Part shown: piece by piece, positions 12,068-32,602 of the stretch
How positions within the stretch are numbered: the stretch's first letter is position 1
How the letters are laid out: every line of letters starts with the position of its first letter
NCBI GenBank assembly: GCA_036558345.1
Contig: DATBFV010000125.1
Location: forward strand, 10,848 to 74,847
Direction: 5' to 3'
Source: Gemmatimonadales bacterium
Lineage (GTDB): Bacteria > Gemmatimonadota > Gemmatimonadetes > Gemmatimonadales > GWC2-71-9
Length of the DNA: 64,000 nucleotides
Made by a program: the position numbers and the translations under genes
Notes under the pieces: model-generated
What the model saw: only the letters and a program-made list of their open reading frames with translations
The model's database searches: none
What the model was told of the DNA's origin: nothing

Positions 12068-12070
12068 TCT

Positions 12071-14205: not shown

Positions 14206-14391
14206 CTAGAGGGCCAGGCCTACTGGGAACAGAATGCAGTAGCCCAGCACCAGCAGCACCGGCGCGAGCGTCGTGGATCCCTTCGACAGCAACCAATACC
14301 CAAGCGCCAACGAAACGAGTGCGCCACCGAGAGCGATGTAGTTCTTCGGGCCGAAGCGGAGGCGCGAGCGTGTGAGTGTTTGGTCTGGCAT
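14206..14391 (-). CDS. Small two-TM membrane protein (DUF3098-like pattern)
   Basis: 61 aa. FGPKNYIALGGALVSLALGYWLL, then APVLLVLGYCILFPVGLAL. Family assignment is from memory only. Confidence 0.5.
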   Translation of the reverse strand: MPDQTLTRSRLRFGPKNYIALGGALVSLALGYWLLSKGSTTLAPVLLVLGYCILFPVGLAL

Positions 14392-14405: not shown

Positions 14406-15410
14406 CTATTCGGTAATCTCAAGCTCGTCAAGCAGTTGGCTTCCATCCGACTCTCCGGCGGCTTGTTCGAGCGCCGCCCGCTTCCGGCGGTCCCGGCGGC
14501 GCCGCATCACGACGAGTGCGACGAGCAATGCGCCGAGTGCCAGCCAGGAGAAGCCCATCGCCGCCAGCCACGACAGCCAGCCGTAGCGCGACCCGACATC
14601 CTTTTGCCAACGGAGCTCAAAGTCTCCTTCAGTGACGTGATACGTGGCGCGCAGAGCGGCATCGAACGATTCCGCGCTCGGAAGATTGGCCAGCAGCGGC
14701 GTCAGCCCGCGTTCCCCGCCCCAGCGCTGCAGCAGTAGCACAGCCGTCGTCGCAAGGGCGTAGCCGCTCTCCGCGTCGCCACGATCGCCGCGCAATGCGC
14801 GATCAATTTCGTCGAGATCCATATGCACGCCCCGCGCCAGTTGCCAGTTCAGCTGGAGCGCATCCAGGCGATCCCACTCCTGGGCAGCCACGGCCGCATA
14901 TCCCTCCTCGAACCAGAGCGGGACATGCCGTCGCACGTGCCAGCGCAGCGCGAGATGCGCGAGCTCGTGCCGCAGGGCGACGGTTGCACGGTTGGACGGT
15001 TGGACGGTGAGCAGGACGATCGTGCCGGCGTCGGGAAACGCCGCGCCTTCACTCCACAGCGGCAGCCGCCCGCGTGTGAGCGAGTCATAACGCGCGCGCG
15101 TCGGCGCGAGAATGAGGTGAATCGGACGATCACCGGGCATGGGACCGATGCCGGGGAAATTGCCTGCGTCATCGGCGAGCTCCGCCAACGCCGTCGCGAG
15201 GCCCTGCTGGCTCGGCCAGGCGACCGCGGTCACACGCCCAACGGTGACGGCGACGGGGGTGGAAGACGGTGGGGACGACAAGCCCTGCAGCAGCAGAGCG
15301 CAAAGAGCTAGTCTCGCGGCGGCTCCTCGCCCTTGGCGACAAGCTCCAGCATTTCCTGACACCGCTTGCCCCAGGGGTTGAACTTGTTGGCCTTGAATCC
15401 ATCCTGCCAC
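14406..15410 (-). CDS. Putative membrane-anchored HExxH zinc-metallopeptidase-like protein
   Basis: HELAHLAL plus downstream FEEGYA (gluzincin-like third ligand). C-terminal TM WLSWLAAMGFSWLALGALLVALVV, then RRRRDRRKR. The start is uncertain: 15410, or the GTG at 15362. Confidence 0.5.
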   Translation of the reverse strand: MAGWIQGQQVQPLGQAVSGNAGACRQGRGAAARLALCALLLQGLSSPPSSTPVAVTVGRVTAVAWPSQQGLATALAELADDAGNFPGIGPMPGDRPIHLILAPTRARYDSLTRGRLPLWSEGAAFPDAGTIVLLTVQPSNRATVALRHELAHLALRWHVRRHVPLWFEEGYAAVAAQEWDRLDALQLNWQLARGVHMDLDEIDRALRGDRGDAESGYALATTAVLLLQRWGGERGLTPLLANLPSAESFDAALRATYHVTEGDFELRWQKDVGSRYGWLSWLAAMGFSWLALGALLVALVVMRRRRDRRKRAALEQAAGESDGSQLLDELEITE

Positions 15411-16189
15411 GTGGACTTCGCCTTCTCCTGATCGCCCGCGAACCAGTGCGCGCGCCCCAGCTCGTAATACGCTTCGATCAGGTTCGGCCCCAACTTGAGC
15501 GTCTTCTGGAAGAACGTCTCCGCATCCTCGTACATCTCGCGCTGCAAATACACGAGGCCGAGATAGAAGTGCGCGTACAACGTCGCCTTCTTGTCGTTGT
15601 CCAGCCGGATGGCCTTGGAGAGGTGCTCGATCGCCTCGCCGAAGATCTGCTTCTTGAGGCAGATGTAGCCGACGTTGATTCGCGCGAGCGAGTTCGCCGG
15701 CTCTTTCATCAGAACCTTCTGGAACGTGCCGAGCGCATCATCGTAGTCCTCGTGCAGCATCTGCGCCCAGCCCAGCAGCGACTCGGCCTTGGTCTCGCCG
15801 GGTGAGAGTTGCAGCGCCTTGGCAAGCGCCTGAATCGCACCGGCATGATCGCCAAGCGAGATGAGACTCCACCCTTTTTCGATGAACGTGGAAGCGCCGA
15901 TGTGATCGGCGTGCATCGCGGGCCGCTCGCCGGTGAACACCGGCGCCGCGGCCTGCTTGGTATCGGGGGTGAGCTGCTTATACCGATCGACGAGCTGGCG
16001 GATGTCCTCCTTCAACTGCGTCAGCTCACCCAGTTGCCCGTCGACCTTCTTGAAGAACGCGATGATCTCGCGCTTCGTGGCTTCGCGCTCGGCGCTGCCC
16101 CCGGCCGGGCCGGAAGCGGCACCGTCGAGCTTCCTCGCGATGGCGTCGTATTCCCGGCGCAGCGTCTCGACCGGTGATTCGTCCGTCAT
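15308..16189 (-). CDS. TPR repeat protein with N-terminal coiled-coil segment
   Basis: Start trimmed to the ATG at 16189 (ATGA overlap with the cheW stop). MTDESPVETLRREYDAIARKL..., then about 5 TPRs. The 496-aa track ORF carries an Arg-rich artefactual N-terminus. Confidence 0.75.
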   Translation of the reverse strand: MTDESPVETLRREYDAIARKLDGAASGPAGGSAEREATKREIIAFFKKVDGQLGELTQLKEDIRQLVDRYKQLTPDTKQAAAPVFTGERPAMHADHIGASTFIEKGWSLISLGDHAGAIQALAKALQLSPGETKAESLLGWAQMLHEDYDDALGTFQKVLMKEPANSLARINVGYICLKKQIFGEAIEHLSKAIRLDNDKKATLYAHFYLGLVYLQREMYEDAETFFQKTLKLGPNLIEAYYELGRAHWFAGDQEKAKSTWQDGFKANKFNPWGKRCQEMLELVAKGEEPPRD

Positions 16190-16659
16190 GTGGCTCCCTG
16201 CAGGGCCAGTTTCTCTTGCGAGTTGAGCAGCTTGTTCGTATTCAGCACGACAATCGTGCGGCCATTCTGCACGACCAGCCCGGCGATGTATTCTGCCGCG
16301 AGCCCGCGCACGATGCCGGGGGGCGGCGTCACAGCCTGGGCCGCTACCTGCATCACCTCGGTCACCGCATCGACGATCACGCCGATCTTGCCGCCGTCGA
16401 ACTCGAGAATGACCGTCCGAGTGTCCTCGCGGAGCGGCGCGGCCACACCGAAACGCTTGCGCAGATCCACGAGCGGCACGGCGCTTCCCTGGTATTGCAG
16501 CACGCCTTCCAGAAACTCCGGGGCCTTGGGCAGCGGCGCCGGCGCTTCGTACCGCAGAATCCGCTCGACCTGAAAGATGTTGAAGGCGAAATCCTGGCCG
16601 GCCACCTTGAACGTGACCAGTTGGACGTCGTCGCCGCCGGCACTCGAGATCGTGCTCAT
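16186..16659 (-). CDS. cheW: Chemotaxis coupling protein CheW
   Basis: 157 aa. LVTFKVAGQDFAFNIFQVERIL...GVLQYQGSAVPLVDLRKRFG is a typical CheW fold signature. Confidence 0.88.
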   Translation of the reverse strand: MSTISSAGGDDVQLVTFKVAGQDFAFNIFQVERILRYEAPAPLPKAPEFLEGVLQYQGSAVPLVDLRKRFGVAAPLREDTRTVILEFDGGKIGVIVDAVTEVMQVAAQAVTPPPGIVRGLAAEYIAGLVVQNGRTIVVLNTNKLLNSQEKLALQGAT

Positions 16660-17081
16660 GTGATGCGATCACTGAGGGCATCGAGATCGAGGATCGGCAC
16701 CAGCCCGCTCTCCTGCTTGGCGACGCCTGCGGCCCACGGCAGCGATTGCCCGCGCGGCACCGGCAGCGGCTGCTCGCGCACAACGGCATCGGCATCATCC
16801 ACCTCGAATGCGACCTGGCGATTTCGCGCGCCGCTGCCGAGCTCCACGAGCACGACGGTCCGCAAGACCGCCTCCCCGACAGCTGGAGCCTCGCGACCGG
16901 TGAGCAACGCGCCGAGGTGAATGAGCGGCACGAGACGGCCGCGCAGCGGCGTCAGACCGCGAATGGACGGGAGCTTGCGCGGGACCTGCAATACTTCCGT
17001 CGTGTCGCCTACTTCGAGCACGCGAGCGACCGGGAGGCCGTAGGGCTTGCCTTCGGAACGCACGAGCAAGTAGCCCTTCAT
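16656..17081 (-). CDS. Divergent CheW-like protein
   Basis: 141 aa. [21 protein letters not shown]...[18 protein letters not shown] follows the CheW pattern but is more divergent. Confidence 0.65.
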
Positions 17082-18187
17082 CGGATTCCCTTACGCACCA
17101 GCTCGACGGCCACCCGCTCGGCGATTTGCGCGAGCGGTAGCACCGCGTCGACGCCGCCCGCCTGCACCGCGGCCCCCGGCATGCCATGGATCACCGATGT
17201 CTCGCGGTCCTGGGCGAAGCCAGAGCCGCCGGCGTCCTTGATCGCGCGCAGGCCGCCGGCGCCGTCGCGGCCCATGCCGGTGAGCACGACGCCAACACTG
17301 CGAGCGCCGTACACTTCGGCGATCGAGCGAAACAGCGGATCGGCCGCCGGCCGGACACCCCAGAGCGGGGCTGATTGGTCGAGCGCGATTACCGGACCGT
17401 CGGGAGCAGAGCGCACCCGCATATGATAATCGCCCGGGGCCACATATGCCGTGTCGGCCACGATCGGTGCGCCGTCATCCGCCTCGACGACGCGCAGGCG
17501 ACTCATCGAGTCGAGCCGCTCTGCGAGACTGCGCGTGAATCTGGGCGGCATGTGTTGCACGACCAGAACCGCCGCACCGCGGCCGGTGGGCAGGCGCGGC
17601 ACCACATCCGCGAGCGCGCGCGGCCCGCCGGTGGATGCGGCGATTCCGACGGCCAGCAATGCCCGCCGGCGCAGGCCCAGATCGGGCGGGTGGATGACTT
17701 GTGCCGGCGGCCGCGCCAGGACCTTGACGTGAGAGACGTCCGCGGCGAGCGCGCGGCGCAGCGCCGCGATCAGCTCAGGCGCCAGCGCCTCCAACGCGGC
17801 GCGCGGATGCCCAAAGCCCTCGGCCGGCAGCGGCGGCTTCGCGACGATTTCCACCGCGCCGAGCTCGAGCGCGCGGATCGCCGCCTGGGTCCCCGGGCCG
17901 GCGTGCGCGCTCACGACGACGATGGGCCGCGGCGCCTCGGACATGATGTACCCGATGGCGCCCAGCCCATCGAGGTGCGGCATCTCGAGATCGAGTGTGA
18001 CGACGTCGGGCCTGTACTGATGGACCTTCCGAATCGCGTCGATGCCGTCGCGGGCCGTCGCCACCACGTGAAACTCGCCGTTTTGCGCATCACCGCCGCC
18101 GAGGACATCGACGAGCACCCGCCGCATGAGGGCGCTGTCGTCGGCGACCAGAACCGTCGGCCGCTGGGATTCAGATGACGTCGACAT
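17078..18187 (-). CDS. cheB: Chemotaxis response regulator protein-glutamate methylesterase CheB
   Basis: Start trimmed to the ATG at 18187. REC domain ([22 protein letters not shown]) plus methylesterase domain ([26 protein letters not shown]). Confidence 0.9.
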
Positions 18188-18653
18188 TGGTCCCCACCGA
18201 CCGGATCTCGACGCGCCCGTCTCTGACGTGGAATCGGATGCTGCGGCCGCGCTCTCCGCCGACCGATTCCCGGATGATGGGAATGGCGGCCAGGCGCAGT
18301 GCGCTGCGGCACGCGAGCACGTTCCGCTCTCCCATCTGGATGGTGCCGGGTGTGACGAGCTGGCTGAACATGCTCGCGCCGCCTGCCAGCTTGGCGACCA
18401 GCCGCCGCGGGTCCGCGCCCAATCTGGTGAGCCGCTCGATGAGCATCGGTACGGCAGTGTCGGGAAACTTGGCGGGATTACTCGTGTCGCGGGCGAGGCT
18501 GGTGGACGGCAGCAACACGTGCGCCATGCCTCCGGCGCTCGTCGCCGCATCGTGCAGCATGATGGCAACGCACGAGCCGAGTCCGAGCGTCACCAACACT
18601 CCGTCACCCCGCTCCGCGGCCCAGTCGGCAACTCTGACGATGACTTCCTTCAC
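18171..18653 (-). CDS. cheD: Chemoreceptor glutamine deamidase CheD
   Basis: 160 aa from the GTG at 18653 (GTGA overlap with the cheR stop). [15 protein letters not shown]...GGMAHVLLP. Confidence 0.88.
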
Positions 18654-19438
18654 GCGGGCTTCATATAGATCCGCTCGCGCGGATCCACGACCTTGAGGCG
18701 CTGGCGCGCGGGCCCGAACAGCGTCTCGACCTTGCCGAGCAGCAGCACCCCAGCGGGCCGCAGCGCGTCGACAAATACCTGAAACAGCCGCTCCTGCGCC
18801 GATCGCGCGAAGTAGATCACGACATTGCGGCAGACGATCAGGTCGTACGGCGGCTTGGGCGGCGCGTCGCGCGTGAGATCGTGGGGGATCACGTTGACCA
18901 GCTTGCGAACCTCGGGCACCGGCTGGCCATCCAAGAAATAGCGACGCCGCAAGGCCGCGGGCATTTCGGTGAACGCGGTATCGGGATACTTCGCCTCGCG
19001 GGTGCGCTCGAGGCTCAACCGATCGATGTCGGTCGCATCGATGGTGCCCTGCGCCTGCACCTCGGCGAGCAATACCGCGATCGTGTAGGGTTCTTCGCCG
19101 GACGCACAGCCCGCGGACCAGATCCTGAGCGGGCGACGCCTTTCGGTCCAGAGATCCTTGAGAACCGGTCGCAGCGCGTCCCACGTTTCCGGATTGCGAT
19201 AGAATTTCGTGACGTTGATGGTCAGCGCGTCGACCAGCTCTTGATACTCGTGCGGATCGCGGTCGAGGAGTTTGGCGTAGTCGTCGTAGGTGTGGATGCC
19301 GCGCGCCCGCATGCGCACGGCGATGCGGCGTCGCAGGCACTTGTCCTTGTAGGAGCCGCAGCTCATTCCCCGCTCGCGCGAGATCTTCTGCGTCAGCGCT
19401 TCGAAGGCTCGCTCCTGCGGAGCCTCCGCGGGTTTCAC
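18650..19438 (-). CDS. cheR: Chemotaxis protein methyltransferase CheR
   Basis: INVTKFYRNPETW and SAGCASGEEPYTIA (SAM-binding site). Start placed at the GTG 19438, overlapping the upstream TGA. Confidence 0.88.
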   Translation of the reverse strand: MKPAEAPQERAFEALTQKISRERGMSCGSYKDKCLRRRIAVRMRARGIHTYDDYAKLLDRDPHEYQELVDALTINVTKFYRNPETWDALRPVLKDLWTERRRPLRIWSAGCASGEEPYTIAVLLAEVQAQGTIDATDIDRLSLERTREAKYPDTAFTEMPAALRRRYFLDGQPVPEVRKLVNVIPHDLTRDAPPKPPYDLIVCRNVVIYFARSAQERLFQVFVDALRPAGVLLLGKVETLFGPARQRLKVVDPRERIYMKPA

Positions 19439-21051
19439 GAGAGACTGCTCAGCGTGTCCAGATTCGCCCTGACGAGCTCGTGTTTGGGATTGAGCTCCAG
19501 CGCGCGCCGCCACAGCTCGCTCGCGTGCTCGCGGTCGTTTCGCTTATACGCGATGTTGCCGAGCTTGAAGTAGACGTCGTCGCCGAGCTCGGGCGAGAGA
19601 TCGATTGCGCGCTGATACAGATCCCACGCCTCGTCGTAGCGCGAGCTGCGGTAGGCGAGATCGCCGAGATTCTTGGAGAGCTGCGGCAGTGAGGGCTCGT
19701 CCCGCAGTGCCGCGCGCGCCAGCTCCTCCGCTTGCGCCAAGTCTCCGGCCAGTTCGTGCAGGACGGCGAGGTTGTTGCGGAGCACACCATGCTGCGGATG
19801 GGCTTCAACGGCCTGACGCGCCACCTGCTCGGCCGTTTCGAAATCGCCGGCTGCCGCGGCGGACAGCACGCGGGCCCAAAACCAGATCGGCGGCACCTGC
19901 TCGGCGAACAGCTCTTTCGCGCGGTCGAGCCGCCCGGTGGCGCCGGCGTGATCGCCCTGTTTGAGGGCGACGATCCCCCAGCCGAGATAGATACGTGGGT
20001 CGGTTTTTGCCCGCGATGCCGCTTCCGAGTAGGCGGCCTCGGCGTCCTCGAGCCGGCCGAGCTGCTCGTACGCCAGGCCGAGATTGTGGAGCACGGCGGG
20101 GCGCGAGCCGCCCTTTTCGGCGGCGAACCGCAGCGCCTCCATGGCCTCGCGCCAGCGCGCCTGTTTGAGCGCGACGAGACCAATGAAGAAATGCGCGTTC
20201 GCATCCGTCGCGCGCAGCTCCGCCACGCGGCGAAATTCGCGCGCGGCCTCGTCCAGCATCCCCGTCTTGTAGAACGCGATGCCGAGATTGCGGTGCTCCT
20301 CCACGCGCGCATCGGTCATTTTGACGTCTTCGGCGCTGACGGTGCGGCCGGCGCGATGCAGGAATCCCGCGGTGACGAGGCCGTAGAGCGCCTTGCCGAC
20401 TTCGAACTCGCCGAGCCCCGAGTCCTCGATGACCTGATTGACGTCGCGCGAGCCGTCCAGTAGCGAGAGTAGCCGGTCCTGAACCTCGGTCAATTTGGCG
20501 TCGCTGATCGCGAGGCGGTCGCGGTCCACGAGGAATATCAGATCGAACGACGGGATTTTCTTCTCGATCAGCCCCCACTCGTCCACGCGCCGCGCCCCTT
20601 CCAGGAGCAACGACTCGGGATTGATGGAAACGAGGAAGTCCTGCTGCTCCGGACGGACGTCGGCCTCGAAGTTGAACGTGCCCTGCGTCCACGTGAACAA
20701 ATAGTAGACCGACTCCTCGATCTGCATGCGCATGTAGCGCTCGAGCTCCTGCTGCGTGAGCACGTTCTGCACGACGAGGATTTCGCCCAGCTTCTTGTCG
20801 CGCGCCTTGGACTGGCGATGGATCGCGGCGTCGAGCTGCTCCTGCGTGATTTTTTCGTGCTTGACCAGGATGTCGCCGAGACGATCGCGCCGGTTGACGA
20901 TCGAGGCGTACGAGATGCGGCCCTTGTCGAAGTAGATGTAGCCGAAGTTCGAGCGGTCGGCGATCGACAGGCAGCCGGTCTTCTGCCCCAGCGCGAGCAG
21001 CTGCAGCACGTCGGGCAGCGAGGCTTCTTTGAGCGAGCCCTTGATCGCCAT
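19435..21051 (-). CDS. DUF4388 (PATAN)-domain protein with C-terminal TPR array
   Basis: 538 aa. N-terminal MAIKGSLKEASLPDVLQLLALGQKTGCLSI...GYIYFDKGRISYA is a DUF4388 signature. About 7 TPRs from about aa 250. Confidence 0.8.
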   Translation of the reverse strand: MAIKGSLKEASLPDVLQLLALGQKTGCLSIADRSNFGYIYFDKGRISYASIVNRRDRLGDILVKHEKITQEQLDAAIHRQSKARDKKLGEILVVQNVLTQQELERYMRMQIEESVYYLFTWTQGTFNFEADVRPEQQDFLVSINPESLLLEGARRVDEWGLIEKKIPSFDLIFLVDRDRLAISDAKLTEVQDRLLSLLDGSRDVNQVIEDSGLGEFEVGKALYGLVTAGFLHRAGRTVSAEDVKMTDARVEEHRNLGIAFYKTGMLDEAAREFRRVAELRATDANAHFFIGLVALKQARWREAMEALRFAAEKGGSRPAVLHNLGLAYEQLGRLEDAEAAYSEAASRAKTDPRIYLGWGIVALKQGDHAGATGRLDRAKELFAEQVPPIWFWARVLSAAAAGDFETAEQVARQAVEAHPQHGVLRNNLAVLHELAGDLAQAEELARAALRDEPSLPQLSKNLGDLAYRSSRYDEAWDLYQRAIDLSPELGDDVYFKLGNIAYKRNDREHASELWRRALELNPKHELVRANLDTLSSLS

Positions 21052-23605: not shown

Positions 23606-23607
23606 GA

Positions 23608-24084: not shown

Positions 24085-24428
24085 GCCCCCGCCTCCGCCG
24101 CGCGCAGCAACTCCAGGCGCACCAGCCCAATATTCACGTCGGGCTCGGCGACCGCGACGACCAGGAGATTGCCCGACGCTTCGCCGCCCGGCACGACCAG
24201 CAGGGCCCCCTGTTCGGCCTGCAGGTGCCAGAACACGCTCGACCCCGTTCCTGCCGCCTCCATGGCGCGACGCAACCGGCCGGCAAGGCTCGCGGCGAGT
24301 GCGGCGACAGCGCCGCCCTTGATCCCTTCCATGAGCTGCTCGGCGACGACCAGCCCATCTTCGGCTGAGACGAGCATCGCGCCGCGCACTCCGCGCACCC
24401 GCGTGATCAGATCGAGCGCTTTGCTCAT
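24081..24428 (-). CDS. Roadblock/LC7 domain protein (MglC-like paralogue)
   Basis: 115 aa. VRGAMLVSAEDGLVVAE...NIGLVRLELL. Confidence 0.75.
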   Translation of the reverse strand: MSKALDLITRVRGVRGAMLVSAEDGLVVAEQLMEGIKGGAVAALAASLAGRLRRAMEAAGTGSSVFWHLQAEQGALLVVPGGEASGNLLVVAVAEPDVNIGLVRLELLRAAEAGA

Positions 24429-25261
24429 TGCTGTTCCAACCAGCGGCGCGCCATCAGTGTCGCGCGCTGTGCGACAATCGCGAGCCGGCCGAGCGGGATG
24501 CCGCGATCGCGCACGACGAGCAGCAACGCTTCGGGGGTGGGATGCGCGAGGTGCACGTTGCCGTGCTGCCCTTCCGCCGAGAGGCCGTTCCAGGCGCCGA
24601 GACCGAGGAGCTTGGCAGTCCGCGCCGCTTCCTGCGACACACCGGCCAGGTACGCAGCGACGGAGTCGGTGACGTCCTTTCCCCCGCCGTCCTTCAAGGC
24701 GCCACCCAACACGCGACCAGCACCGTCGATGAGCAGCAGACCTTCGTTGGCACCTTCGAGACCGGCAAAGACGCGAGCTTCGTCGAGGGCGCTGGTGCCG
24801 GCAGTCGCCGAAGGAGCGCCGGCGGATGCCGTAGGGGCGGGAGCCGGTTCTGGCGCAGGCGCGGTGCCGCCGCCGCGGATCATCTCCAACGCCTGATCGA
24901 TGCTGGGGTCATCGGGCTCGACCCTCTTGGCGGCCGCGAGATGCGCTTCTGCCTGCTCCAGATCTCCGACCTTGAAATAAAGGAAGGCGAGGCCCTTCAG
25001 CGCGCCGGTGTGGTGAGGCGCGATGCGCACCGCCATGTCCCACTCGTCGAACGCCTTTTCGTATTCGTGCCTATCCGTCAAGATGCGGGCATAGAGGTCG
25101 TGGGCGTCGGCCAGATGCGGATGGCGCTCCAGGCCGTTCGCCGCCACCCGCTGCGCCGCGTCGAGCTGCCCTTTGCGTCGCAGCGCTTCGCCGAGCCGCA
25201 GGAAGACAAGGCTCTGCGGATCCTGCGCGAGCTGCGCCGACAGCGCCCGGATGTCATCCAT
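24425..25261 (-). CDS. TPR - Roadblock/LC7 fusion protein
   Basis: Start trimmed to the ATG at 25261. About 3 N-terminal TPRs, a Pro/Ala linker, then a C-terminal GLLLIDGAGRVLGG...LLLVVRDRGIPLGRL Roadblock-like domain. Confidence 0.7.
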   Translation of the reverse strand: MDDIRALSAQLAQDPQSLVFLRLGEALRRKGQLDAAQRVAANGLERHPHLADAHDLYARILTDRHEYEKAFDEWDMAVRIAPHHTGALKGLAFLYFKVGDLEQAEAHLAAAKRVEPDDPSIDQALEMIRGGGTAPAPEPAPAPTASAGAPSATAGTSALDEARVFAGLEGANEGLLLIDGAGRVLGGALKDGGGKDVTDSVAAYLAGVSQEAARTAKLLGLGAWNGLSAEGQHGNVHLAHPTPEALLLVVRDRGIPLGRLAIVAQRATLMARRWLEQQ

Positions 25262-26405
25262 GCGCGAATACCCTGGCCGCCTGCCGCGCGCGATCGACAT
25301 CGGCGCGCTGTGCTTCCTCTTCAGGACTGCGGCTTGCCAGCCGGTCCCATTGATCCCAGCTCTGCACCGCTTCGCCGAACCGTCCCATCGCGACGAGCGC
25401 GAATCCAAGCTGGCGATGCGCCGCCGGCAGCAACGGGTCCAGCCGCAGCGCCCGCCGCAGCTCCTCGGCGGCCGCGGACGCGTTGCCCTGCGCCTGGTGA
25501 ATGCGTCCCAGCAACAAGTGGATCGTGGCATCGTGCGGCTGCATGCTGCCGGCTTGTTCGGCCGCGGCGCGCGCCGCGTCGAGATCCTTGGACTGCAGCG
25601 CCCGCTCCGCCTTGGCGACGAGCTCGGCCAAGAGCTCGGCTAGATCGCCGGCCGCACCTGCCCGGGCGCGGCGTGCGGTGCCAGGATCGACCAGCACGAT
25701 CACACCGGCACTCTCGAGCCCAAACAGGGTCTTCGCCACCTCGAAGTCCGACCGGCCGAGCTCCGTCGCCAGCCCGCGCACCGAGCGCTCGCCGTCGATC
25801 AGCGCCAGGACTTCCCACTCCGGCGGGAGCAGATCGAGCTCGCCACCGCCGCCTTCCGGCGGCGGCGCGAGTGACGGCACGACGCCGACGTGGGGAATGC
25901 GGTTCTCGATGCGTGACCACTCGTCGATCCGACGCGCGCCTTCCATCAGCAACGCTTCCACCGGGATCCGGACGGTCAGCTCCGTCGGGACTTTGCTCTC
26001 CGTCTGCTCGGCGAAGGAGAAGTATCCTTCGTTCCAACTCATCACTTCGAAGACGACTTCCTCGATCTGAAACCGCACCTGCCGCTCGACCTCGCGCTGC
26101 GTAATCACGCCGAGCGCGACGAGAATTTCGCCCAGACGCCGCTTGTCGCCTTGACGCTGCTGCATGTCCCGCGCGCGCTCGAGATCCGCCTCGGTGATTC
26201 TGCCCGTGCGCAAGAGCAGCGCCCCCAGCGGATGGGGGTTGGAGCGGATTTCGGCCGAGACGACCACGCCGTTGTCGAAGTAGATCGTCCCCTCGTTGTG
26301 GCGGAGCTCCGACGTCACCTGCAATGCTCCGGTCTTCCGGCTCAGGTCGAGGAGCTGGAAGACGTCGTGGATCCCGAGCTCGCGTAGCGGTCCTTCGATG
26401 GTCAT
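25254..26405 (-). CDS. DUF4388 (PATAN)-domain protein with C-terminal TPRs (paralogue of 19435..21051)
   Basis: 383 aa. MTIEGPLRELGIHDVFQLLDLSRKTGALQV...GTIYFDNGVVVSA; aligns by eye with the other DUF4388 protein over about 230 aa. Confidence 0.8.
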   Translation of the reverse strand: MTIEGPLRELGIHDVFQLLDLSRKTGALQVTSELRHNEGTIYFDNGVVVSAEIRSNPHPLGALLLRTGRITEADLERARDMQQRQGDKRRLGEILVALGVITQREVERQVRFQIEEVVFEVMSWNEGYFSFAEQTESKVPTELTVRIPVEALLMEGARRIDEWSRIENRIPHVGVVPSLAPPPEGGGGELDLLPPEWEVLALIDGERSVRGLATELGRSDFEVAKTLFGLESAGVIVLVDPGTARRARAGAAGDLAELLAELVAKAERALQSKDLDAARAAAEQAGSMQPHDATIHLLLGRIHQAQGNASAAAEELRRALRLDPLLPAAHRQLGFALVAMGRFGEAVQSWDQWDRLASRSPEEEAQRADVDRARQAARVFAHG

Positions 26406-26408
26406 GCG

Positions 26409-29180
26409 CTACGCCGCGTCCGAGGTGGAGAAGATGTGCTGCAGATCGATCGCGGTGCGCGCGTGCAGGCGCGCGCGCTGCGCGAAGGGCCCGCCAGGAT
26501 CGATCCGCGTGACGCGCTCCCAGGCATCCACGGCCTCACCGTAGCGCTGTAGCCGCGCGAGGGTCGCGCCGAGGTAGAACAGCGCCCCGGTATGCTCCGG
26601 ATCGAATTTGAGCGCGCGCCGGAACGCCTCGAGCGCCTCAGCGCCGCGCTTGTCGTCGAGCAGCGTGCGACCCAGCAGCAGCAGCGCATCCAGGTCGTAC
26701 GGGTCCTGCTCCAACATTTCGGCCAGCCGCACGACGGCAGCGCGCAAGCTCCCCATGCGACGCAGTAAGTCGCCCAAGGCCAGCGCCGCTTCGTGGAATG
26801 TCGGCAGCGCATCCAGCGCCGCTTCATACGCCCGCTGTGCGTCTATCCAGGCTTCATCATGCTCATGCAAGCGGCCCAGCTCGAGCCACACCTGCACGAA
26901 TCCCTGGTCCAAGTCGAGCGCGGCACGGTACGCCGCGCGTGCGCCTTGGTTGTCGCCGACTTTGAGAGCGATGTCGCCCTGCAGCTTGTGCAAATCGGCA
27001 CGCGCCGGCGCACGCGTCTGGGCCTGACGCAGCGCCGTCAATGCTCCCGCGGCATCGCCGGTGGCGGCTCGCGCCTTGGCGGCCGCGACCAGCACCTCGA
27101 CATCCTCAGGCGCCTTGACGACCAGGTCTTCCGCGATCGGCAACGCCTCGGCTCCGCGGTGCAGGGCGAGCAGACTCTTCACCTCGCCGAGCGCGGCGGC
27201 GGCGTTCGCCGCGTCCAGCGTGCGCGCTTCGCGGTAGCGCTCCAATGCTTCACCATGGAGCCCGCGGCGCGCGTAGATTTCGCCGATCAGCGTGCCGGCT
27301 TGCCCCTTGTCCGCGCCGCGCTGCACCGCGCGCATCGCCTCCGCGACCGCGAGGTCCATCATTCCCTTGCTCACATAATCACGCGCCAGCGCGAGCGGAT
27401 CGTCCGCTTTCTTGGCCAGACCGGCGGGAGCGGCCTGTGGGGCCGACGCTGCCGGTTGCAGGTCGCGGAAGATGTTGTCGAGCAGGCGCTGATCGAACGC
27501 GAACTCCCCGGCGAGGTTCTCCGCCGCGACGTCGGCCGAGATCTCGGGGACGATCCCGATCGCGACGGTCTCATACTGGAGATCGATCGCCAGCGCGAAC
27601 TTCTGCGACACGTAGTAGGGGTCGAGCTCGAGCGCGCGCTTGGTGGCGCGTAGCGCGCCGTCGTAATCACCCAGATTCGACAGTGTGAAGCTGAGATTGT
27701 AGTGCGCACCGGCATTCTGTGGATCGGATTCCACCGCGCGCACAAACGCATTCCGCGCATCCACAAACCGCTTGAGCTCCACCAGCACGAGGCCTACGCC
27801 GTTCCACGCCGGGGCGGAGTTGGACTGCTCGGCCAGCACCTGGCGATACGCTTCGAGCGCGAGCTGAAAGCGCCGCAGGTGCGTCAGCAGCAACGCGAGG
27901 TTCAGCCGCGCGCCAACGAACTGCGGGGAGAGCTGCAGCGCCTTGCGGAATGCCTCGATGGCCTCGTCCGTGTTGCCTTGATGCGCGAGCACCACACCGA
28001 CGTTGTTCCACGCGAGCGCGTAGCGTGGGTCCACCTCCGTCGCCTGGCGGTACGAGGTCAGCGCCTCGGCGGTCCGGCCGGCCTGATGTAGCACCACGCC
28101 GCGCTCATTCCACAGCTTCGGCGATTCCGGGACTTCGTGGATCAACGATTCGTAGAGCTCCAACGCGTCCGGGAAATCGCGCTTGAGGAGATGGACCTCG
28201 GCCATCGCCTGCCGAACGAGGCGCCGGTCTTCGCCGCGCTCGATCGCGAGCCGGTACTCGCGCAACGCCTCCGTGTAGTAGCCCTTCTGCCGGAACGCGA
28301 GACCCAGGTTGTAGTGGGCCAGCTCGCTGCCTTCGGCGACCTCGGGCGGGGGCTGCTCGCGGAGGCGATGCTCAGCCGACTGGCGCTCGGCGCGATAGCG
28401 CTCGAGCGAGAGGTTGGTTTGCGCGCGGGCGAGCGGCGGATTGAGTTGAATCGCGCGCTTCGAGGCGGCGCGCGCGTCCTGGTGCCGGCCCATGTCGCCC
28501 AGGACGAACGCCATCAGATAATGCGCGTTGGCATTGTCAGGGTTGAGCGCGACCGCGCGCTCCAGCGCGGTGAGCGCCGGCTCGTTCAGCCCGCGATTGT
28601 AGTAGACCTCGCCGAGGTAGAACTGCACGACGGACGAATCCGGCTCTTGCTCGACCGCGCGCACAAACCACTCCGTCGCAACCTCCAGACGGCCGCGCGA
28701 TTTCTCGGCGAGCCCCAGCTGGATGATGGCGGCGACATCGTTCGGCTTGTGGGCGAGCAGCTCCTCGAACTCCGCGACCGCCTCCTCGAATGCGCCGAGG
28801 ATCGCGTAGGTGCGGCCCAGCTCCCAGCGCGCGTCCCGTTCGTCGGGTGCGCCGCGCAACCGCTCCTGCAGCTCCGCGACGCGGTGGTCGTAATAGCCGG
28901 TATTGTGGTAGGCGATCTCGAGGTTGCGTTGCGCGACCTGCATGCGCGGGTCCAGCTCAAGGGCGCGCGTGAACTGCTCAATGGCCTCGGGGACGAGCCC
29001 CTTCTGATAGTAGAGGACCCCGAGATTGTTGTGCGCGCCGGCATCGGACGGATCGATCCGGCGCGCGAACGAGCGAAGGACCGCGAGGTCGCGCTCGGAA
29101 ACCGGACGGGGGGGCGATGGAGAAGCCGGGGCGGGCGCTGTGGGCGAACCCGAGGAGGGCGTCGCGTGAGGCGCCGTCAC
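26409..29180 (-). CDS. Large TPR repeat protein (923 aa)
   Basis: Continuous TPR consensus units (AHNNLGVLYYQKG, AHYNLGLAFRQKGYY, AWNNVGVVLAHQG and others). GTG start at 29180. Confidence 0.85.
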   Translation of the reverse strand: MTAPHATPSSGSPTAPAPASPSPPRPVSERDLAVLRSFARRIDPSDAGAHNNLGVLYYQKGLVPEAIEQFTRALELDPRMQVAQRNLEIAYHNTGYYDHRVAELQERLRGAPDERDARWELGRTYAILGAFEEAVAEFEELLAHKPNDVAAIIQLGLAEKSRGRLEVATEWFVRAVEQEPDSSVVQFYLGEVYYNRGLNEPALTALERAVALNPDNANAHYLMAFVLGDMGRHQDARAASKRAIQLNPPLARAQTNLSLERYRAERQSAEHRLREQPPPEVAEGSELAHYNLGLAFRQKGYYTEALREYRLAIERGEDRRLVRQAMAEVHLLKRDFPDALELYESLIHEVPESPKLWNERGVVLHQAGRTAEALTSYRQATEVDPRYALAWNNVGVVLAHQGNTDEAIEAFRKALQLSPQFVGARLNLALLLTHLRRFQLALEAYRQVLAEQSNSAPAWNGVGLVLVELKRFVDARNAFVRAVESDPQNAGAHYNLSFTLSNLGDYDGALRATKRALELDPYYVSQKFALAIDLQYETVAIGIVPEISADVAAENLAGEFAFDQRLLDNIFRDLQPAASAPQAAPAGLAKKADDPLALARDYVSKGMMDLAVAEAMRAVQRGADKGQAGTLIGEIYARRGLHGEALERYREARTLDAANAAAALGEVKSLLALHRGAEALPIAEDLVVKAPEDVEVLVAAAKARAATGDAAGALTALRQAQTRAPARADLHKLQGDIALKVGDNQGARAAYRAALDLDQGFVQVWLELGRLHEHDEAWIDAQRAYEAALDALPTFHEAALALGDLLRRMGSLRAAVVRLAEMLEQDPYDLDALLLLGRTLLDDKRGAEALEAFRRALKFDPEHTGALFYLGATLARLQRYGEAVDAWERVTRIDPGGPFAQRARLHARTAIDLQHIFSTSDAA

Positions 29181-29183
29181 CGT

Positions 29184-29801
29184 TCAGCTCAACCGGATGG
29201 CGTCGAAAATCGCTTTGAGGGACGCCAGGTCGGGCAACAGCAGGAAGTGACCGCGCAACCCGTCCCGCGCATCGATATTGAATTCCGTCTCGACGCAAAA
29301 CACGAAGTCGCGGTCGTGCCCGAAGTTCAAATACGTCGTCGTCAGGACAGCGGCCGAGAGATCCACGACCAGGCTGGGCACCGAAGGCAGCAGCAACATC
29401 CCCATGAATTCCGACAGCGCGTTCATGTAGGCGCCGGAAAGGATGTTGCCCGCTTCCTTGAGGCACGATTGCTCGAGCGTTTCGAACGTCTTCGTCGTGC
29501 CGAGCGGCCGCTTGAGCAGCATGTCGCATAACTGCCGCCCGACCGTCTCTGGAAACAGCAGCAGGGTGCGGCCCGTGAGGTCGCCGAGCATGTGCATGAG
29601 AACCGCGGTGACCACTTCCTGCGGATCTCCGATCAGCCCCGAGACCTCTTCCAGCCTCGCGATGTTGATCCGGGGCACGGAAATCATGATGCGCCGGTGC
29701 GTGAGCTGCGACAACGCCGTCGCGGCGTGGCCCGCACCGATGTTGGCCACTTCCTTGAGCGCGTCGAGCTGCAGCGCTTTCAGATCACGGACGTCTTCCA
29801 T
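29184..29801 (-). CDS. cheC: CheY-P phosphatase CheC
   Basis: 205 aa. Two ExxN active-site repeats: LKEVANIGAGHAATALS and LKEAGNILSGAYMNALS. Confidence 0.85.
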   Translation of the reverse strand: MEDVRDLKALQLDALKEVANIGAGHAATALSQLTHRRIMISVPRINIARLEEVSGLIGDPQEVVTAVLMHMLGDLTGRTLLLFPETVGRQLCDMLLKRPLGTTKTFETLEQSCLKEAGNILSGAYMNALSEFMGMLLLPSVPSLVVDLSAAVLTTTYLNFGHDRDFVFCVETEFNIDARDGLRGHFLLLPDLASLKAIFDAIRLS

Positions 29802-29808
29802 GAGTCTC

Positions 29809-31731
29809 CTAGACCAGTCCAGCGGCGTCGAGAATCAGAGCGGGCACGCCATCGCCCATGATGGTGGCTCCACTGAACACCGGCAATGTACCCTCGGGGG
29901 CGTCGAATCCCTTCACGACGATCTCCTGCTGGCTCAGCATGCCGTCCACGACGATGCCGGCCCGGCGCTCACCCATCTCGAGAACAATCACGGGTCGCCG
30001 GGGAGGCGGCGCGGGTGCGCCACCATTCGTGCCGAGCAGCTTGCGCAGATCGATGAGCGGCACCACGCGATCACGCAATACGATCGCGTCGCGTCCTTCC
30101 ATCGTGGTGGTCGGCGTCGTGCCGTACTCGACCGTCTCGGCGACATAGGTGAGCGGCAGCGCATAGCGCTCCTGCCCCACCGCCGCGATCAAGGCGCGGA
30201 CGATCGCGAGCGTGACCGGCAGCCGGAGCACGAACGCGGTGCCCTTCCCCGGTTCCGTGCGGATTTCGATCGATCCGCCGAGCGCGCGGATGCGCGTCAT
30301 GGCGACATCGATACCGACGCCTCGACCGGACACGCTCGTGACGGACTCCGCCGTCGAGAACCCGGGCCGCGCCAGCACGCGCAGCAGCTGGTCATCGGAC
30401 AGCGAATCGACCTTCGGACCGACGATGCCTTCGCGCTTCGCCTTCGCGAGGATCTTCACGCGATCGATGCCGCGGCCATCGTCCGAAATACTGATCGCCA
30501 CGCTGGATCGCTCGCGTACCGCCGCCAGGACGACCTCGCCCTCGGGGTTCTTCTTGCGCCGCTTCCGCTCGGCGGGCGGCTCGATGCCGTGATCGACGGC
30601 GTTGCGCAACAGATGCATGAGCGGATCGCCGAGCTCGTCGAGGATTTCGCGATCGAGCTCGATCTCCTTCCCCTCGACCCGAAATGAGACCTGCTTGCCG
30701 AGCTGACGCGCGACGTCGCGCACCAGCCGGGGGAAACGGTCGAATACCTGCCACACCGGCGTCATGCGCGCCTGGATGATTTCGTTTTGCAGATCGGCGG
30801 AGAGCCGCGAGATCTGAATCGCGACTTCGTCGATCTCAGGATCACCGCCTCGACCGATCCAGCGGGCTGCGAGCTCGTTCAGGCGGCCGCGCTCGGTGAC
30901 GAGCTCACCGATCAAGTCCATGAGCGTGTCGAGGCGGCGCAGGTCGACGCGGATGTGCCGGCTGCGTCCGGCGCCGCCCGCGCCCGCGCCGCCCGCCCCA
31001 CCGACCTCTGCCGCGCCGAGCGGACCCTCGTCCACCGCGCTACCCACCGTGACGTGCTCGACGTCCCCAACGGACCGAATCGCCGCCTCGATATCGGCCG
31101 GCGAAGCAGCCGTGTCGAGCTCGAGGACGAAATGCCCATCGAAATCGTCCGACTCAAACGTGGTGGCAGGCGGCTGCACCCGGACGACCGAACCCAGGCC
31201 TTGGGCCTTGCGCAGCGCCAGCATCGCGCGGCCACCTTTGAGCGGCGCTTCGGGGCGAATCTGCACGCTGATGAGCCTCCCAGAGCCAGCCGGGGCCGCG
31301 ATGGCATCGGCGGCGGGAGGCGGCGATGGGGCGGCGGATGCGGAGACGGGCTGCTTGACCGACACCCCATCGATGGCGGCAAGCACGCCGGCGAGATCGG
31401 CTTCGCGCTCACGTCCCGCGACAGCGAGTCCGACGGCTTTCTCGAGCGCATCGGTGGCGCGAAACAGCAGCTGGATGATCTCGTCGCTGGGCGCCTTGCC
31501 GCCGCGCCGGAGGTGGTCGAGCAGGTTCTCCATGCGATGCGCGAGGTCGGCGACGCGGCCGTAACCCATCGTGGCCGCCATGCCCTTGATCGTATGGACG
31601 GCGCGAAACAGCCCGCCGACGGGCTCCAGCGCGGCAGGGTTCCGCTCCCACTCGAGCAACAGCTGATTGCAGGCGCTCAAGTGCTCGCGGCTCTCGGCCA
31701 GGAACAGCTCGGCGTACTGCGACAGATCCAT
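29809..31731 (-). CDS. cheA: Chemotaxis histidine kinase CheA
   Basis: 640 aa. Hpt (FRAVHTIKGMAATMG), dimerisation domain, HATPase (DDGRGID, SGRGVGIDV), C-terminal CheW-like P5. Confidence 0.93.
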   Translation of the reverse strand: MDLSQYAELFLAESREHLSACNQLLLEWERNPAALEPVGGLFRAVHTIKGMAATMGYGRVADLAHRMENLLDHLRRGGKAPSDEIIQLLFRATDALEKAVGLAVAGREREADLAGVLAAIDGVSVKQPVSASAAPSPPPAADAIAAPAGSGRLISVQIRPEAPLKGGRAMLALRKAQGLGSVVRVQPPATTFESDDFDGHFVLELDTAASPADIEAAIRSVGDVEHVTVGSAVDEGPLGAAEVGGAGGAGAGGAGRSRHIRVDLRRLDTLMDLIGELVTERGRLNELAARWIGRGGDPEIDEVAIQISRLSADLQNEIIQARMTPVWQVFDRFPRLVRDVARQLGKQVSFRVEGKEIELDREILDELGDPLMHLLRNAVDHGIEPPAERKRRKKNPEGEVVLAAVRERSSVAISISDDGRGIDRVKILAKAKREGIVGPKVDSLSDDQLLRVLARPGFSTAESVTSVSGRGVGIDVAMTRIRALGGSIEIRTEPGKGTAFVLRLPVTLAIVRALIAAVGQERYALPLTYVAETVEYGTTPTTTMEGRDAIVLRDRVVPLIDLRKLLGTNGGAPAPPPRRPVIVLEMGERRAGIVVDGMLSQQEIVVKGFDAPEGTLPVFSGATIMGDGVPALILDAAGLV

Positions 31732-31734
31732 GGG

Positions 31735-32097
31735 CTAGCCGAGCACGCGCTGGACGGCTTCGAGAACGCGAGAGGGTTGGAACGGCTTTACGACGAAGTC
31801 TTTGGCGCCGGCCTGAATCGCCTCGACGACCAGCGCTTGCTGGCCCATCGCGCTGCACATCAGGATCTTCGCGTCGGGATCCTGCTTCACGATCTCGCGG
31901 ACGGCGTCGATCCCACCCATGTCGGGCATCACGATGTCCATCGTGACGAGGTCGGGCTTGAGCTGACGATACTTCTCGACGGCCTGCGTGCCGGTCTCCG
32001 CTTCGCCGACGACCTCGAATCCTGCTTGCGCCAGGATGTCGGTGATCATCGTACGCATGAAGATGGCATCGTCACAGACGAGAACCGTATGGCTCAC
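31735..32097 (-). CDS. cheY: Single-domain response regulator CheY
   Basis: 120 aa. VLVCDDAIFMR, LVTMDIVMPDMGG, FVVKPF. Confidence 0.9.
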   Translation of the reverse strand: MSHTVLVCDDAIFMRTMITDILAQAGFEVVGEAETGTQAVEKYRQLKPDLVTMDIVMPDMGGIDAVREIVKQDPDAKILMCSAMGQQALVVEAIQAGAKDFVVKPFQPSRVLEAVQRVLG

Positions 32098-32107
32098 AGC
32101 TCGCTCC

Positions 32108-32602
32108 TTAAGTAGTCAGAATCGGCCCCAACAGCGCGGCGACGTCCAGCAGGATAAACAGCTCGCCGTGTCGCCGTCCCACCGCTCGGACAAGAGTCGG
32201 GTCGACGCCGGGCAGACCCTTACCATCCTCCAGCGTCGCCTCGGTGACGGCCAGGACGTCCAGCACCTCGTCCACCGTAAAACCAATCAGCTTTCTGCCG
32301 GCTCCTGCTGCCTCCTTCGACCCGTTTCCCGGTGCGACCTCGAGGAGGAGCGTCGAACCGGCGTCTTCAGACGATGCTGGCTGGGAGGTCTCGGTAGGGG
32401 CAAGCGCACGCAGCCCTTCCACGACCGTCACCAGTGTGCCGCGGACATTCACGAGCCCCGCCACGACCGGGGGCGCGCCCGGGATACGCGTCGTTGGGAG
32501 GCGCGGGAGTATCTCCCGCACTTGATCCACCTCGGCTGCGCACGCCAGTGTCCCGACGCGGAACACCAAGAGGCGAGCGGAAACGAGGCTTCCGTCAGTC
32601 AT
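32108..32602 (-). CDS. CheW-like coupling protein (third copy)
   Basis: Start trimmed to the ATG at 32602. LLVFRVGTLACAAEVDQVREIL...GLVNVRGTLVTVV. Confidence 0.8.
   Translation of the reverse strand: MTDGSLVSARLLVFRVGTLACAAEVDQVREILPRLPTTRIPGAPPVVAGLVNVRGTLVTVVEGLRALAPTETSQPASSEDAGSTLLLEVAPGNGSKEAAGAGRKLIGFTVDEVLDVLAVTEATLEDGKGLPGVDPTLVRAVGRRHGELFILLDVAALLGPILTT

Follow-up and report, generated by a model that had tools for sequence, protein, structure and literature searches.

The window analysed here is a stretch of 64,000 nucleotides (nt) from a Gemmatimonadales bacterium (assembly GCA_036558345.1, contig DATBFV010000125.1, positions 10,848 to 74,847 of the forward strand), with a G+C content of 64-70%. 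Its minus strand carries an unbroken run of 19 genes, from position 32602 to 14406, in which a chemosensory (Che) gene set, a Ras-like GTPase of the MglA type with Roadblock proteins, PATAN and tetratricopeptide repeat (TPR) proteins and a tandem DnaA-like ATPase are encoded together. An initial annotation, made from the sequence alone, had described these 19 genes. The open reading frame (ORF) listing and translation confirm all of them at the same coordinates, and Pfam, the kind of profile annotation it had proposed as a check, confirms each of its domain calls. It had overlooked a 20th gene, encoding a membrane protein of 61 amino acids (aa), which extends the block to about 20 genes, and a tRNA-Val gene that bounds the unit. 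In order of transcription, with positions counted along the window and expectation values given as E, the block consists of:

32108..32602, minus strand, CheW1, 164 aa (Pfam CheW, E 4.7e-22), whose ATG lies within an 8-nt overlap with the end of rluD
31735..32097, minus strand, CheY, a single-domain response regulator, 120 aa (Pfam Response_reg, E 2e-31)
29809..31731, minus strand, CheA histidine kinase, 640 aa, with domains P1-P2-P3-P4-P5 (Pfam Hpt, P2, H-kinase_dim, HATPase_c and CheW)
29184..29801, minus strand, CheC-type phosphatase of phosphorylated CheY (CheY-P), 205 aa (Pfam CheC, E 2.9e-22)
26409..29180, minus strand, TPR scaffold protein, 923 aa (Pfam TPR families)
25254..26405, minus strand, PATAN1, 383 aa, DUF4388 with a degenerate MshEN-like insertion and TPR repeats (Pfam DUF4388, E 5.8e-33)
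24425..25261, minus strand, TPR-Roadblock fusion, 278 aa (Pfam TPR families and Robl_LC7, E 1.5e-4)
24081..24428, minus strand, stand-alone Roadblock/LC7 protein, 115 aa (Pfam Robl_LC7, E 1.6e-9)
23608..24084, minus strand, MglB-like Roadblock protein, 158 aa, presumed GTPase-activating protein (GAP) for MglA (closest solved proteins Myxococcus xanthus MglB, E 1.8e-8, and Thermus MglB)
23003..23605, minus strand, MglA Ras-like GTPase, 200 aa (full-length match to M. xanthus MglA, E 5.5e-72)
21051..23006, minus strand, tandem DnaA-domain-III AAA+ ATPase, 651 aa (Pfam Bac_DnaA twice, 344 bits)
19435..21051, minus strand, PATAN2, 538 aa, DUF4388 with a tandem MshEN-type motif and TPR repeats (Pfam DUF4388, E 8e-39)
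18650..19438, minus strand, CheR methyltransferase, 262 aa (Pfam CheR_N and CheR)
18171..18653, minus strand, CheD deamidase, 160 aa (Pfam CheD, E 2e-29)
17078..18187, minus strand, CheB methylesterase with a receiver domain, 369 aa (Pfam Response_reg and CheB_methylest)
16656..17081, minus strand, CheW2, 141 aa (Pfam CheW, E 1.9e-16)
16186..16659, minus strand, CheW3, 157 aa (Pfam CheW, E 1.2e-33)
15308..16189, minus strand, TPR protein with a non-TPR N-terminal region, 293 aa (Pfam TPR families)
14406..15281, minus strand, HExxH protein (Pfam Peptidase_MA_2, E 4.9e-9), with an uncertain start (15281, 15233 or 15362)
14206..14391, minus strand, small 61-aa protein for which two membrane helices are predicted, with a LLVLGYC motif (MPDQTL...LLVLGYCILFPVGLAL), 14 nt past the HExxH gene

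The genes are closely packed. Recomputed gaps inside the block measure 10, 3, 7, 3, 3 and 2 nt, and the overlaps 8, 4, 4, 4, 1, 4, 4, 17, 4, 4 and 4 nt; 17/18 junctions among the 19 genes first listed are overlapping or no longer than 10 nt. These lengths, and the 8 nt shared by the rluD 3' end and the cheW1 start, reproduce those first given. The junction between the 293-aa TPR gene and the HExxH gene, however, depends on an uncertain start, being a 26-nt gap with the TTG at 15281 and an overlap with the GTG at 15362 or 15410. Che genes flank the Mgl and ATPase genes on both sides, with overlapping stop and start codons. The overlapping and close junctions support the proposal that Che, MglA/MglB, PATAN/TPR and DnaA-like ATPase genes are united in one translationally coupled block. 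At its 3' end, the 293-aa TPR protein, which the initial annotation described as a coiled-coil protein, is kept in every Gemmatimonadota variant except L084 (compared loci are numbered L001 to L090 where they have to be told apart). The HExxH protein has a HELAH motif and a C-terminal hydrophobic stretch, a putative anchor, both read from the sequence. The 61-aa ORF is 44-90% identical (tblastn) to small ORFs called at the corresponding position in L001, L084, L085, L087, L088 and L090, and is probably the last gene of the unit.

Whether this juxtaposition is unique to the source genome had been left as a question by the initial annotation. A genome scan, with a linker signature taken from the alignment of a 7-sequence subset of the ATPase family as query, finds relatives of the tandem ATPase in 267 species-level genomes. 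The best 80 of these 267 confirmed matches are Gemmatimonadota-labelled except for one Myxococcales and one 'uncultured bacterium', and many are, by their labels, soil metagenome-assembled genomes (MAGs). When 22 window proteins are compared with these 80 loci by tblastn, the parts of the block covered by each contig are colinear and on a single strand in 80/80, and CheA, MglA, the ATPase and CheB all lie on the locus in 38 of them. Median identities are 98% for CheY, 90% for MglA and about 66-88% for the others, with the exception of CheW1, which is often cut at the locus edge. An arrangement that is colinear and on one strand in every one of the 80 related loci is far beyond chance. The more distant loci L084-L086 have the same architecture at 35-55% protein identity (MglA 68-79%). 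L087 and L088 keep the block, in the same range of protein identity, at the same chromosomal site, between rluD and rsmH-ftsL-ftsI, and L084 keeps it despite a different downstream flank. With distant lineages keeping the order as well, the juxtaposition is thus conserved, and the block is part of the conserved core genome of Gemmatimonadota. The complete architecture also occurs on a contig of a Myxococcales-labelled MAG (L053, DASWGQ010000203.1), where the proteins are 70-89% identical to those of the window; this contig is most likely a mis-binned Gemmatimonadales.

The Che proteins include the gene complement of an F1-class system, that is, CheA with a P2 domain, CheW, CheY, CheB, CheR, CheC and CheD. 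The closest solved CheA is that of Thermotoga maritima (E 1e-90), and the best NCBIfam models are those of haloarchaeal CheA and CheY and of Thermotogales CheC, all of them scoring under their cut-offs. Judged by gene complement and by these closest solved and NCBIfam relatives, the set looks F1-class-like and not Frz-type. The core had at first been called complete, which is correct for CheA, CheW, CheY, CheC, CheR, CheD and CheB but not for the receptor. As first reported, no domain of a methyl-accepting chemotaxis protein (MCP) is recognisable: none is found in the block by Pfam, in the window by a crude six-frame motif scan, or in the 10-kb flanks of the relatives examined. The receptors for the pathway may be encoded elsewhere in the genome. 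CheA is without a receiver domain, and Pfam finds receivers in the block only in CheY and CheB. CheY itself is identical to T. maritima CheY (1tmy) at 78 of 117 residues (67%, E 1.5e-51), and archaeal CheY matches it as well (E 1e-44). Residues 82-118, which we take to be the alpha4-beta5-alpha5 region, are almost unchanged relative to the T. maritima protein. Across the Gemmatimonadales loci L002-L081 CheY is 92-100% identical, against about 60-90% for neighbouring proteins, and an identity of 67% is kept in the Cloacimonetes-labelled lineage described below. Because this constraint is unusually strong, it suggests that CheY has several binding partners.

MglA is identical to the M. xanthus protein at 111 of 195 residues (57%) and matches Thermus thermophilus MglA over its full length (E 2.9e-68). 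Aligned with M. xanthus MglA, it displays the P-loop GPGRSGKT, the intrinsic arginine in TDRTLFFDF and, in YTVPGQ, the threonine of the switch II TxxGQ. The MglB-like gene precedes mglA, with 2 nt between them. By similarity, motifs and this adjacent gene, the sequence identifies the GTPase as a true group-1 MglA. The 158-aa MglB-like protein scores 22.4 bits with Pfam Robl_LC7 (cut-off 23) and 28.6 bits with the NCBIfam MglB model (cut-off 200), and it is presumed to be the GAP for MglA. Its 115-aa neighbour matches only a generic Roadblock-domain structure (PDB 7f8m, E 1.5e-6). Pfam finds no third receiver-domain protein in the block that could correspond to RomR; genes of the RomR or RomX type could also lie outside the block.

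Both PATAN proteins carry TPR repeats and have no receiver domain (Pfam), and are not of the PatA type. A feature that escaped the first reading is the presence of motifs of the MshEN type for binding cyclic di-GMP (c-di-GMP). The MshEN motif consists of two tandem 24-residue stretches, RLGxx(L/V/I)(L/V/I)xxG(L/V/I)(L/V/I)xxxxLxxxLxxQ, with a short spacer between them (PMC5013675). The NCBIfam model NF053729, for the MshE-related c-di-GMP-binding motif, scores 51 bits in PATAN2 and 41.5 bits in PATAN1 (cut-off 38). In PATAN2, the RLG, LV and Q positions are kept in all seven orthologues compared and the turn glycine is replaced; PATAN1 has a degenerate motif, and L090 has lost the insertion altogether. 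PATAN2 appears to carry a conserved MshEN-type motif and is a predicted c-di-GMP receptor.

The 651-aa ATPase comprises two modules that are 33% identical to each other, with Walker A and Walker B intact in both; in module 1 the box VII arginine and sensor II can be read as well. The first half is 44% identical to Bacillus subtilis DnaA domain III by structure alignment. The AlphaFold2 (AF2) model (predicted local distance difference test, pLDDT, 87; predicted template modelling score, pTM, 0.50) consists of two DnaA-III folds with a helical linker at about residues 266-367, and compares with B. subtilis DnaA domain III (8bv3) at a root-mean-square deviation of 1.2-1.3 A; the pTM is low, and the relative placement of the two modules is not predicted. 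A structure search with this model finds DnaA domain III and double-ring AAA+ proteins (p97, for example) and nothing else, with no match for the linker. In the family alignment, the linker has the signature DEFGxFLS...WRxRV.EAILRWEGEGxRT.RLE.LL...FRDPD, and the C-terminus the motif REKMVWxWP..DRLIEE.

An assignment of this protein to DnaA or Hda is rejected. Each half has the DnaA domain III fold with Walker motifs, as in DnaA and Hda, but there are two modules per chain, a family-specific helical linker and a signalling context, and domains I and IV are absent, with no DnaA_N or Bac_DnaA_C match in Pfam. Both PF11638 and PF08299 are present in the true DnaA proteins that these searches returned. 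The NCBIfam DnaA equivalog, TIGR00362, covers model positions 101-335 of 437 only, and its summed score (512 bits) exceeds the cut-off of 344 because two copies of domain III are present. The Hda/HdaA model TIGR03420 reaches 181 bits against a cut-off of 194.8. JGI records label the tandem ATPase 'chromosomal replication initiator protein DnaA', a systematic mis-annotation, and the practical consequence is that annotation pipelines wrongly call it DnaA. The family numbers more than 120 protein clusters at at least 88% identity in public metagenomes, those named by source being Gemmatimonadetes or Gemmatimonadales MAGs, and among 50%-identity representatives there are dozens of full-length members at 33-55% identity. 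Going by the source-given names seen, it is limited to Gemmatimonadota and one Cloacimonetes-labelled lineage. Literature searches found no description of the family.

Several lineages deviate from the arrangement of the window and provide natural variants of the block:

L083 (GCA_003697105.1, a divergent Gemmatimonadota MAG), an 867-aa TPR gene next to the ATPase gene, and neither Che nor Mgl genes within 10 kb
L082 ('Ca. Cloacimonetes bacterium 4572_55') and L089 (GCA_964404765.1), CheW-CheY-CheA-AAA_22-long CheW-CheC-TPR-PATAN-ATPase
L087 and L088, the full block minus CheW2 and CheW3
L084, no CheD and one long CheW
L090 (GCA_040384245.1), 2802-15589, the block at the same chromosomal site, with CheR, CheD, CheB and CheW2/3 lost and the rest kept
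Gemmatimonas, the GTPase gene 83 nt after the PATAN gene, with no room between them for MglB or Roadblock genes

The 867-aa protein of L083 is homologous to the 923-aa TPR protein (E 1e-99). In L082 and L089, no MglA, MglB or Roadblock genes are present and no CheR, CheD or CheB genes lie nearby; the downstream flanks of these two loci differ from each other and from those of Gemmatimonadota. In L090, CheA is down to 500 aa, with no P2 or dimerisation match on record, and the TPR protein is down to 380 aa. The homologue of the 923-aa TPR protein adjoins the ATPase, or lies one gene away from it, in L082, L083 and L089, and the big TPR protein and the tandem ATPase always co-occur in the variants compared. 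Because these two are common to all variants, they represent the constant core. The next layer would be a PATAN protein with CheW, CheY, CheA and CheC, and MglA/MglB/Roadblock and the adaptation enzymes appear as later or dispensable layers. Such natural 'deletion variants' already suggest dependencies among the parts of the block.

Two further observations concern these variant loci. A pair formed by an AAA_22-type ATPase of about 270 aa and a long CheW-domain protein of 284-343 aa occurs in L082 (3743-5493), L085 (7074-8902) and L089 (4339-6011); it recalls array-positioning ATPase/CheW-like pairs and is absent from the window. In L083 (3765-4667 and 7373-12094), two bactofilin genes lie about 5 kb upstream of the TPR-ATPase pair.

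Gemmatimonas phototrophica AP64 has a syntenic locus, RS07755-RS07820 (NZ_CP011454.1, 1873383-1889101; supplement of PMC9862903). The order there is hpt-ftsH-DUF2723-yggS, followed by genes that include CheW (RS07755), a response regulator (RS07760), DUF4388 (RS07780), a 'GTPase domain-containing protein' (RS07785) and CheB (RS07805). Several genes are missing from the supplement listing, and from the spacing we infer that CheA and the ATPase are present at this locus. The CheA named in that paper, GEMMAAP_RS15835, is rejected as an orthologue; its neighbours are glutamate synthase, HEAT-repeat and GGDEF/EAL proteins. For G. aurantiaca T-27, GAU_1409 is tabulated with the context 'PATAN>MglA>-PATAN>', and a separate MglB>MglA pair is listed at GAU_1115 (Table S2 of PMC4316618, Wuichet and Sogaard-Andersen); an MglA/MglB neighbourhood with PATAN genes was noted earlier (PMC4316618). 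No prior record of the block other than the GAU_1409 entry was found, and the Che genes and the ATPase go unmentioned in that entry. Literature searches combining MglA, CheA/CheW, PATAN, Gemmatimonadota and DnaA-like found no description of the block, and a Geobacter che comparison and a paper on Frz evolution hold nothing on such clusters. The searches thus agree with the earlier remark that no characterised system of this composition was known to its author: no prior study of the block was found, and one of its component families, the tandem ATPase, has no described function.

The surroundings of the block are housekeeping genes on one side (lon, enolase, ftsH, ileS, dksA and rluD) and, on the other, the following features:

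14110-14183, minus strand, tRNA-Val (Rfam), which bounds the unit at its 3' end
12263-14074, a 603-aa TPR protein with a signal-peptide-like N-terminus, between tRNA-Val and tRNA-Asp
12129-12204, minus strand, tRNA-Asp (Rfam)
1254-12067, minus strand, the dcw cluster (rsmH, ftsI, mur genes, ftsW and others), as judged by size, order and the annotation of relatives

The block is thus separated from rsmH and the dcw cluster by tRNA-Val, an exported-looking TPR gene and tRNA-Asp, and the order rluD - block - TPR - rsmH - ftsL - ftsI is common to L001, L087, L088 and L090. An Rfam scan of the window yields three tRNAs only and no riboswitch. Among the upstream housekeeping genes, a protein with a DisA_N (DAC) diadenylate-cyclase domain is encoded at 41970-42770 on the minus strand; it is ordinary and unrelated to the block.

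The block is very probably one functional unit. Its order is kept over deep divergence, the Che genes are interleaved with the others, stop and start codons overlap, and a single unit is indicated because the Che-TPR-PATAN-ATPase arrangement recurs in two genomes of a distant lineage. As to what the unit does, we favour, with confidence that is about evenly poised, a vertically inherited Gemmatimonadota unit in which the F1-like pathway acts on a cytoplasmic polarity or localisation apparatus instead of, or besides, the flagellar motor. Its most likely target would be polar type IV pilus activity or cell polarity. Among more than 400 Gemmatimonadota MAGs surveyed, flagellar genes were found in only one or two soil genomes, and type IV pilus genes in MAGs of all environments but marine (PMC10581226). 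A controller of polarity or pili is favoured because soil Gemmatimonadota are, by these surveys, nearly without flagellar genes but have widespread type IV pilus genes. This reading also draws on MglA, which bears every hallmark of the characterised polarity GTPase and has an MglB-like neighbour, on the PATAN domain of Synechocystis, an output module for pilus motor proteins, and on the earlier record of PATAN genes beside MglA/MglB.

Gene content, domains, motifs, conservation and layering are shown by the data; the protein-protein steps, the direction of signalling and the cellular target in the following sketch are all inferred. Receptors encoded elsewhere and coupled by the three CheW proteins would control CheA, which would phosphorylate the stand-alone CheY, with CheC resetting it, and CheR, CheD and CheB would adapt the receptors. 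CheY-P and the PATAN-TPR proteins together could be a 'split' version of the cyanobacterial PatA-type (PATAN-REC) regulators. Via the TPR scaffolds, this would alter how the tandem ATPase assembles with its 923-aa TPR partner. In Gemmatimonadota, the nucleotide state or the position of MglA might also be changed via the MglB, Roadblock and TPR-Roadblock set. An input of c-di-GMP would enter through the MshEN-type motif of PATAN2, and the HExxH protein and the small two-helix protein may tie the system to the membrane.

The initial annotation had proposed a Che pathway whose output is the GTPase. The juxtaposition of the genes stands, but MglA as the output of the pathway is only partly supported and not established. 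Comparison of the variants points in another direction: the Che genes are invariably accompanied by the big TPR protein, a PATAN protein and the tandem DnaA-like ATPase.

Several points count against a polarity or pilus controller as sketched above. MglA is not a universal output, because MglA and MglB are missing in the Cloacimonetes-labelled variant and the PATAN and GTPase genes of Gemmatimonas stand too close for MglB or Roadblock genes to fit between them. CheY might bind FliM, given its 67% identity to the flagellar CheY of T. maritima and the nearly unchanged residues 82-118. Cultured Gemmatimonas species have a single polar flagellum. Neither the window nor any of the flanks examined contains a type IV pilus gene, and the scarcity of flagella in carriers of the block is taken from a published survey and not from these same genomes. 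Finally, it is the spacing of the genes, and that only, which points to an operon; promoter and terminator scans of 14100-34000 give a site number no higher than in shuffled sequence and are uninformative on operon structure.

A variant of the favoured reading places the output in the core of the block. According to this proposal, the true output device would be the tandem ATPase with its large TPR partner, a replication-initiator fold recruited as an ATP-dependent assembly or scaffold under the control of CheY-P, PATAN and c-di-GMP, and MglA/MglB would have been wired in later, in Gemmatimonadota, for polarity, the pilus pole or the budding site. We regard this as a tentative possibility. If true, chemosensory pathways would gain a new output class and the DnaA fold a new function outside replication, throughout a major soil phylum.

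Foremost among the rival explanations is a flagellar target, because CheY is close to flagellar CheY and Gemmatimonas is polarly flagellated. The Che genes would then serve ordinary F1 flagellar chemotaxis, with CheY-P binding FliM, and the Mgl, Roadblock, PATAN, TPR and ATPase proteins would position the array and/or the polar flagellum, acting on Che. In other polar flagellates, ParC/ParP and FlhF/FlhG do such polar positioning, and the extra ATPase and long CheW pair of some variants recalls array-positioning pairs. The identity to T. maritima CheY is expected under this explanation, as is a CheA/W/Y/C/D/R/B complement with P2 that conforms to F1 and has haloarchaeal and Thermotogales models as its best NCBIfam matches; F1 CheY is, however, highly conserved in archaea too, where it acts on a target other than FliM. 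G. phototrophica, a member of a genus with a single polar flagellum, has the locus, but it is another CheA of this species that its authors mention with flagellar genes. Moreover, soil MAGs hold the complete block although flagellar genes occur in only one or two of them (PMC10581226), and one lineage (L090) keeps the block without CheR, CheD, CheB and two CheW proteins. On this balance we consider a flagellar target unlikely.

Control of the site or timing of cell division, or of the polarity of budding or of growth zones, is quite improbable. Here the Che kinase, c-di-GMP and MglA would set a switch, spatial or for the cell cycle, that consists of the ATPase and its TPR partner and depends on ATP. 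In its favour, the ATPase modules are closely related to the nucleotide switch of DnaA/Hda, the TPR-ATPase pair of L083 lies about 5 kb from two bactofilin genes, and Gemmatimonas aurantiaca was described as also dividing by budding. In Gemmatimonadales, furthermore, the block is always found directly upstream of rsmH-ftsL-ftsI-mur (dcw), but this adjacency may be mere synteny: tRNA-Val, the exported-looking TPR gene and tRNA-Asp intervene before rsmH, the variants L084, L082 and L089 are not beside dcw, and no division protein is encoded within the block.

That the modules are functionally uncoupled, the Che, Mgl and ATPase genes being merely neighbours in a conserved core region of the chromosome, is extremely improbable: almost every gene of the window is encoded on the minus strand, and part of the conservation within the order is general synteny because the flanking housekeeping genes (ileS, dksA, rluD and rsmH/dcw) are syntenic too, but the Che genes are interleaved around the Mgl and ATPase genes with overlapping stop and start codons, the block outlasts the change of flank in L084, the Che-TPR-PATAN-ATPase adjacency is found in a distant lineage in two genomes with different downstream flanks, and gene order is kept while protein identities drop to 30-50%.

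Gemmatimonadota are among the commonest soil bacteria and, to our knowledge, have barely been studied experimentally. We know of a link between a Che pathway and MglA only in Myxococcus, where it runs via separately encoded response regulators. The block is directly relevant to the connection between chemosensory pathways and polarity switches built on small GTPases, with candidate link proteins (PATAN-TPR, TPR-Roadblock, the big TPR scaffold and the double AAA+ ATPase) co-encoded with the kinase and the GTPase. The hypotheses above are directly testable because the locus is present in cultured Gemmatimonas strains.

Compared with known systems, the block belongs to none of the Frz, Tax/Pix and conservon systems. 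With the Frz-MglA/MglB(/RomR-RomX/MglC) system of M. xanthus, it shares the pairing, for one cellular task, of a Che-type pathway with a group-1 MglA and its Roadblock GAP (presumed in the block), and its extra Roadblock paralogues recall MglC. In contrast to M. xanthus, the Che and Mgl genes of the block form one translationally coupled unit. By Pfam, the block has no CheA-receiver fusion (FrzE), FrzCD-like receptor, FrzZ-like double receiver or RomR-like receiver protein; it is instead F1-like with CheC and CheD, and adds PATAN-TPR and TPR-Roadblock proteins and the tandem DnaA-type ATPase. A pure Frz-like system is rejected, since the CheA-receiver fusion, FrzCD and FrzZ are absent.

As in the cyanobacterial Tax/Pix systems, a Che-like kinase pathway is encoded with PATAN proteins, and the PATAN domain has an alpha-helical (MshEN-like) insertion. 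In Synechocystis, PATAN belongs to chemosensory systems and acts as the output domain by binding PilB1 and PilC, proteins of the pilus motor (bioRxiv 10.1101/2021.06.11.447907). Unlike in cyanobacteria, PATAN is fused to TPR and not to a receiver in the block, CheY is separate, no pilus genes lie nearby, and MglA/MglB and an AAA+ ATPase are present. The actinobacterial conservons (CvnA-D) likewise combine a histidine kinase, a Roadblock protein and a GTPase of the MglA family, together with an uncharacterised protein, in one conserved operon (PMC4316618), but their GTPase belongs to group 2, their kinase is a membrane sensor kinase, and they have no Che adaptation enzymes, PATAN, TPR or AAA+ proteins.

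A further likeness, by description and not by sequence comparison of the TPR proteins, is that of MglA acting via TPR-repeat partners. In Bdellovibrio, MglA is reportedly paired with the TPR protein Bd2492. In M. xanthus, MglA with its TPR partner SgmX is described as stimulating type IV pilus formation at the pole (PMC7519303). The TPR effectors of those organisms lie outside any Che operon, in contrast to the TPR proteins of the block.

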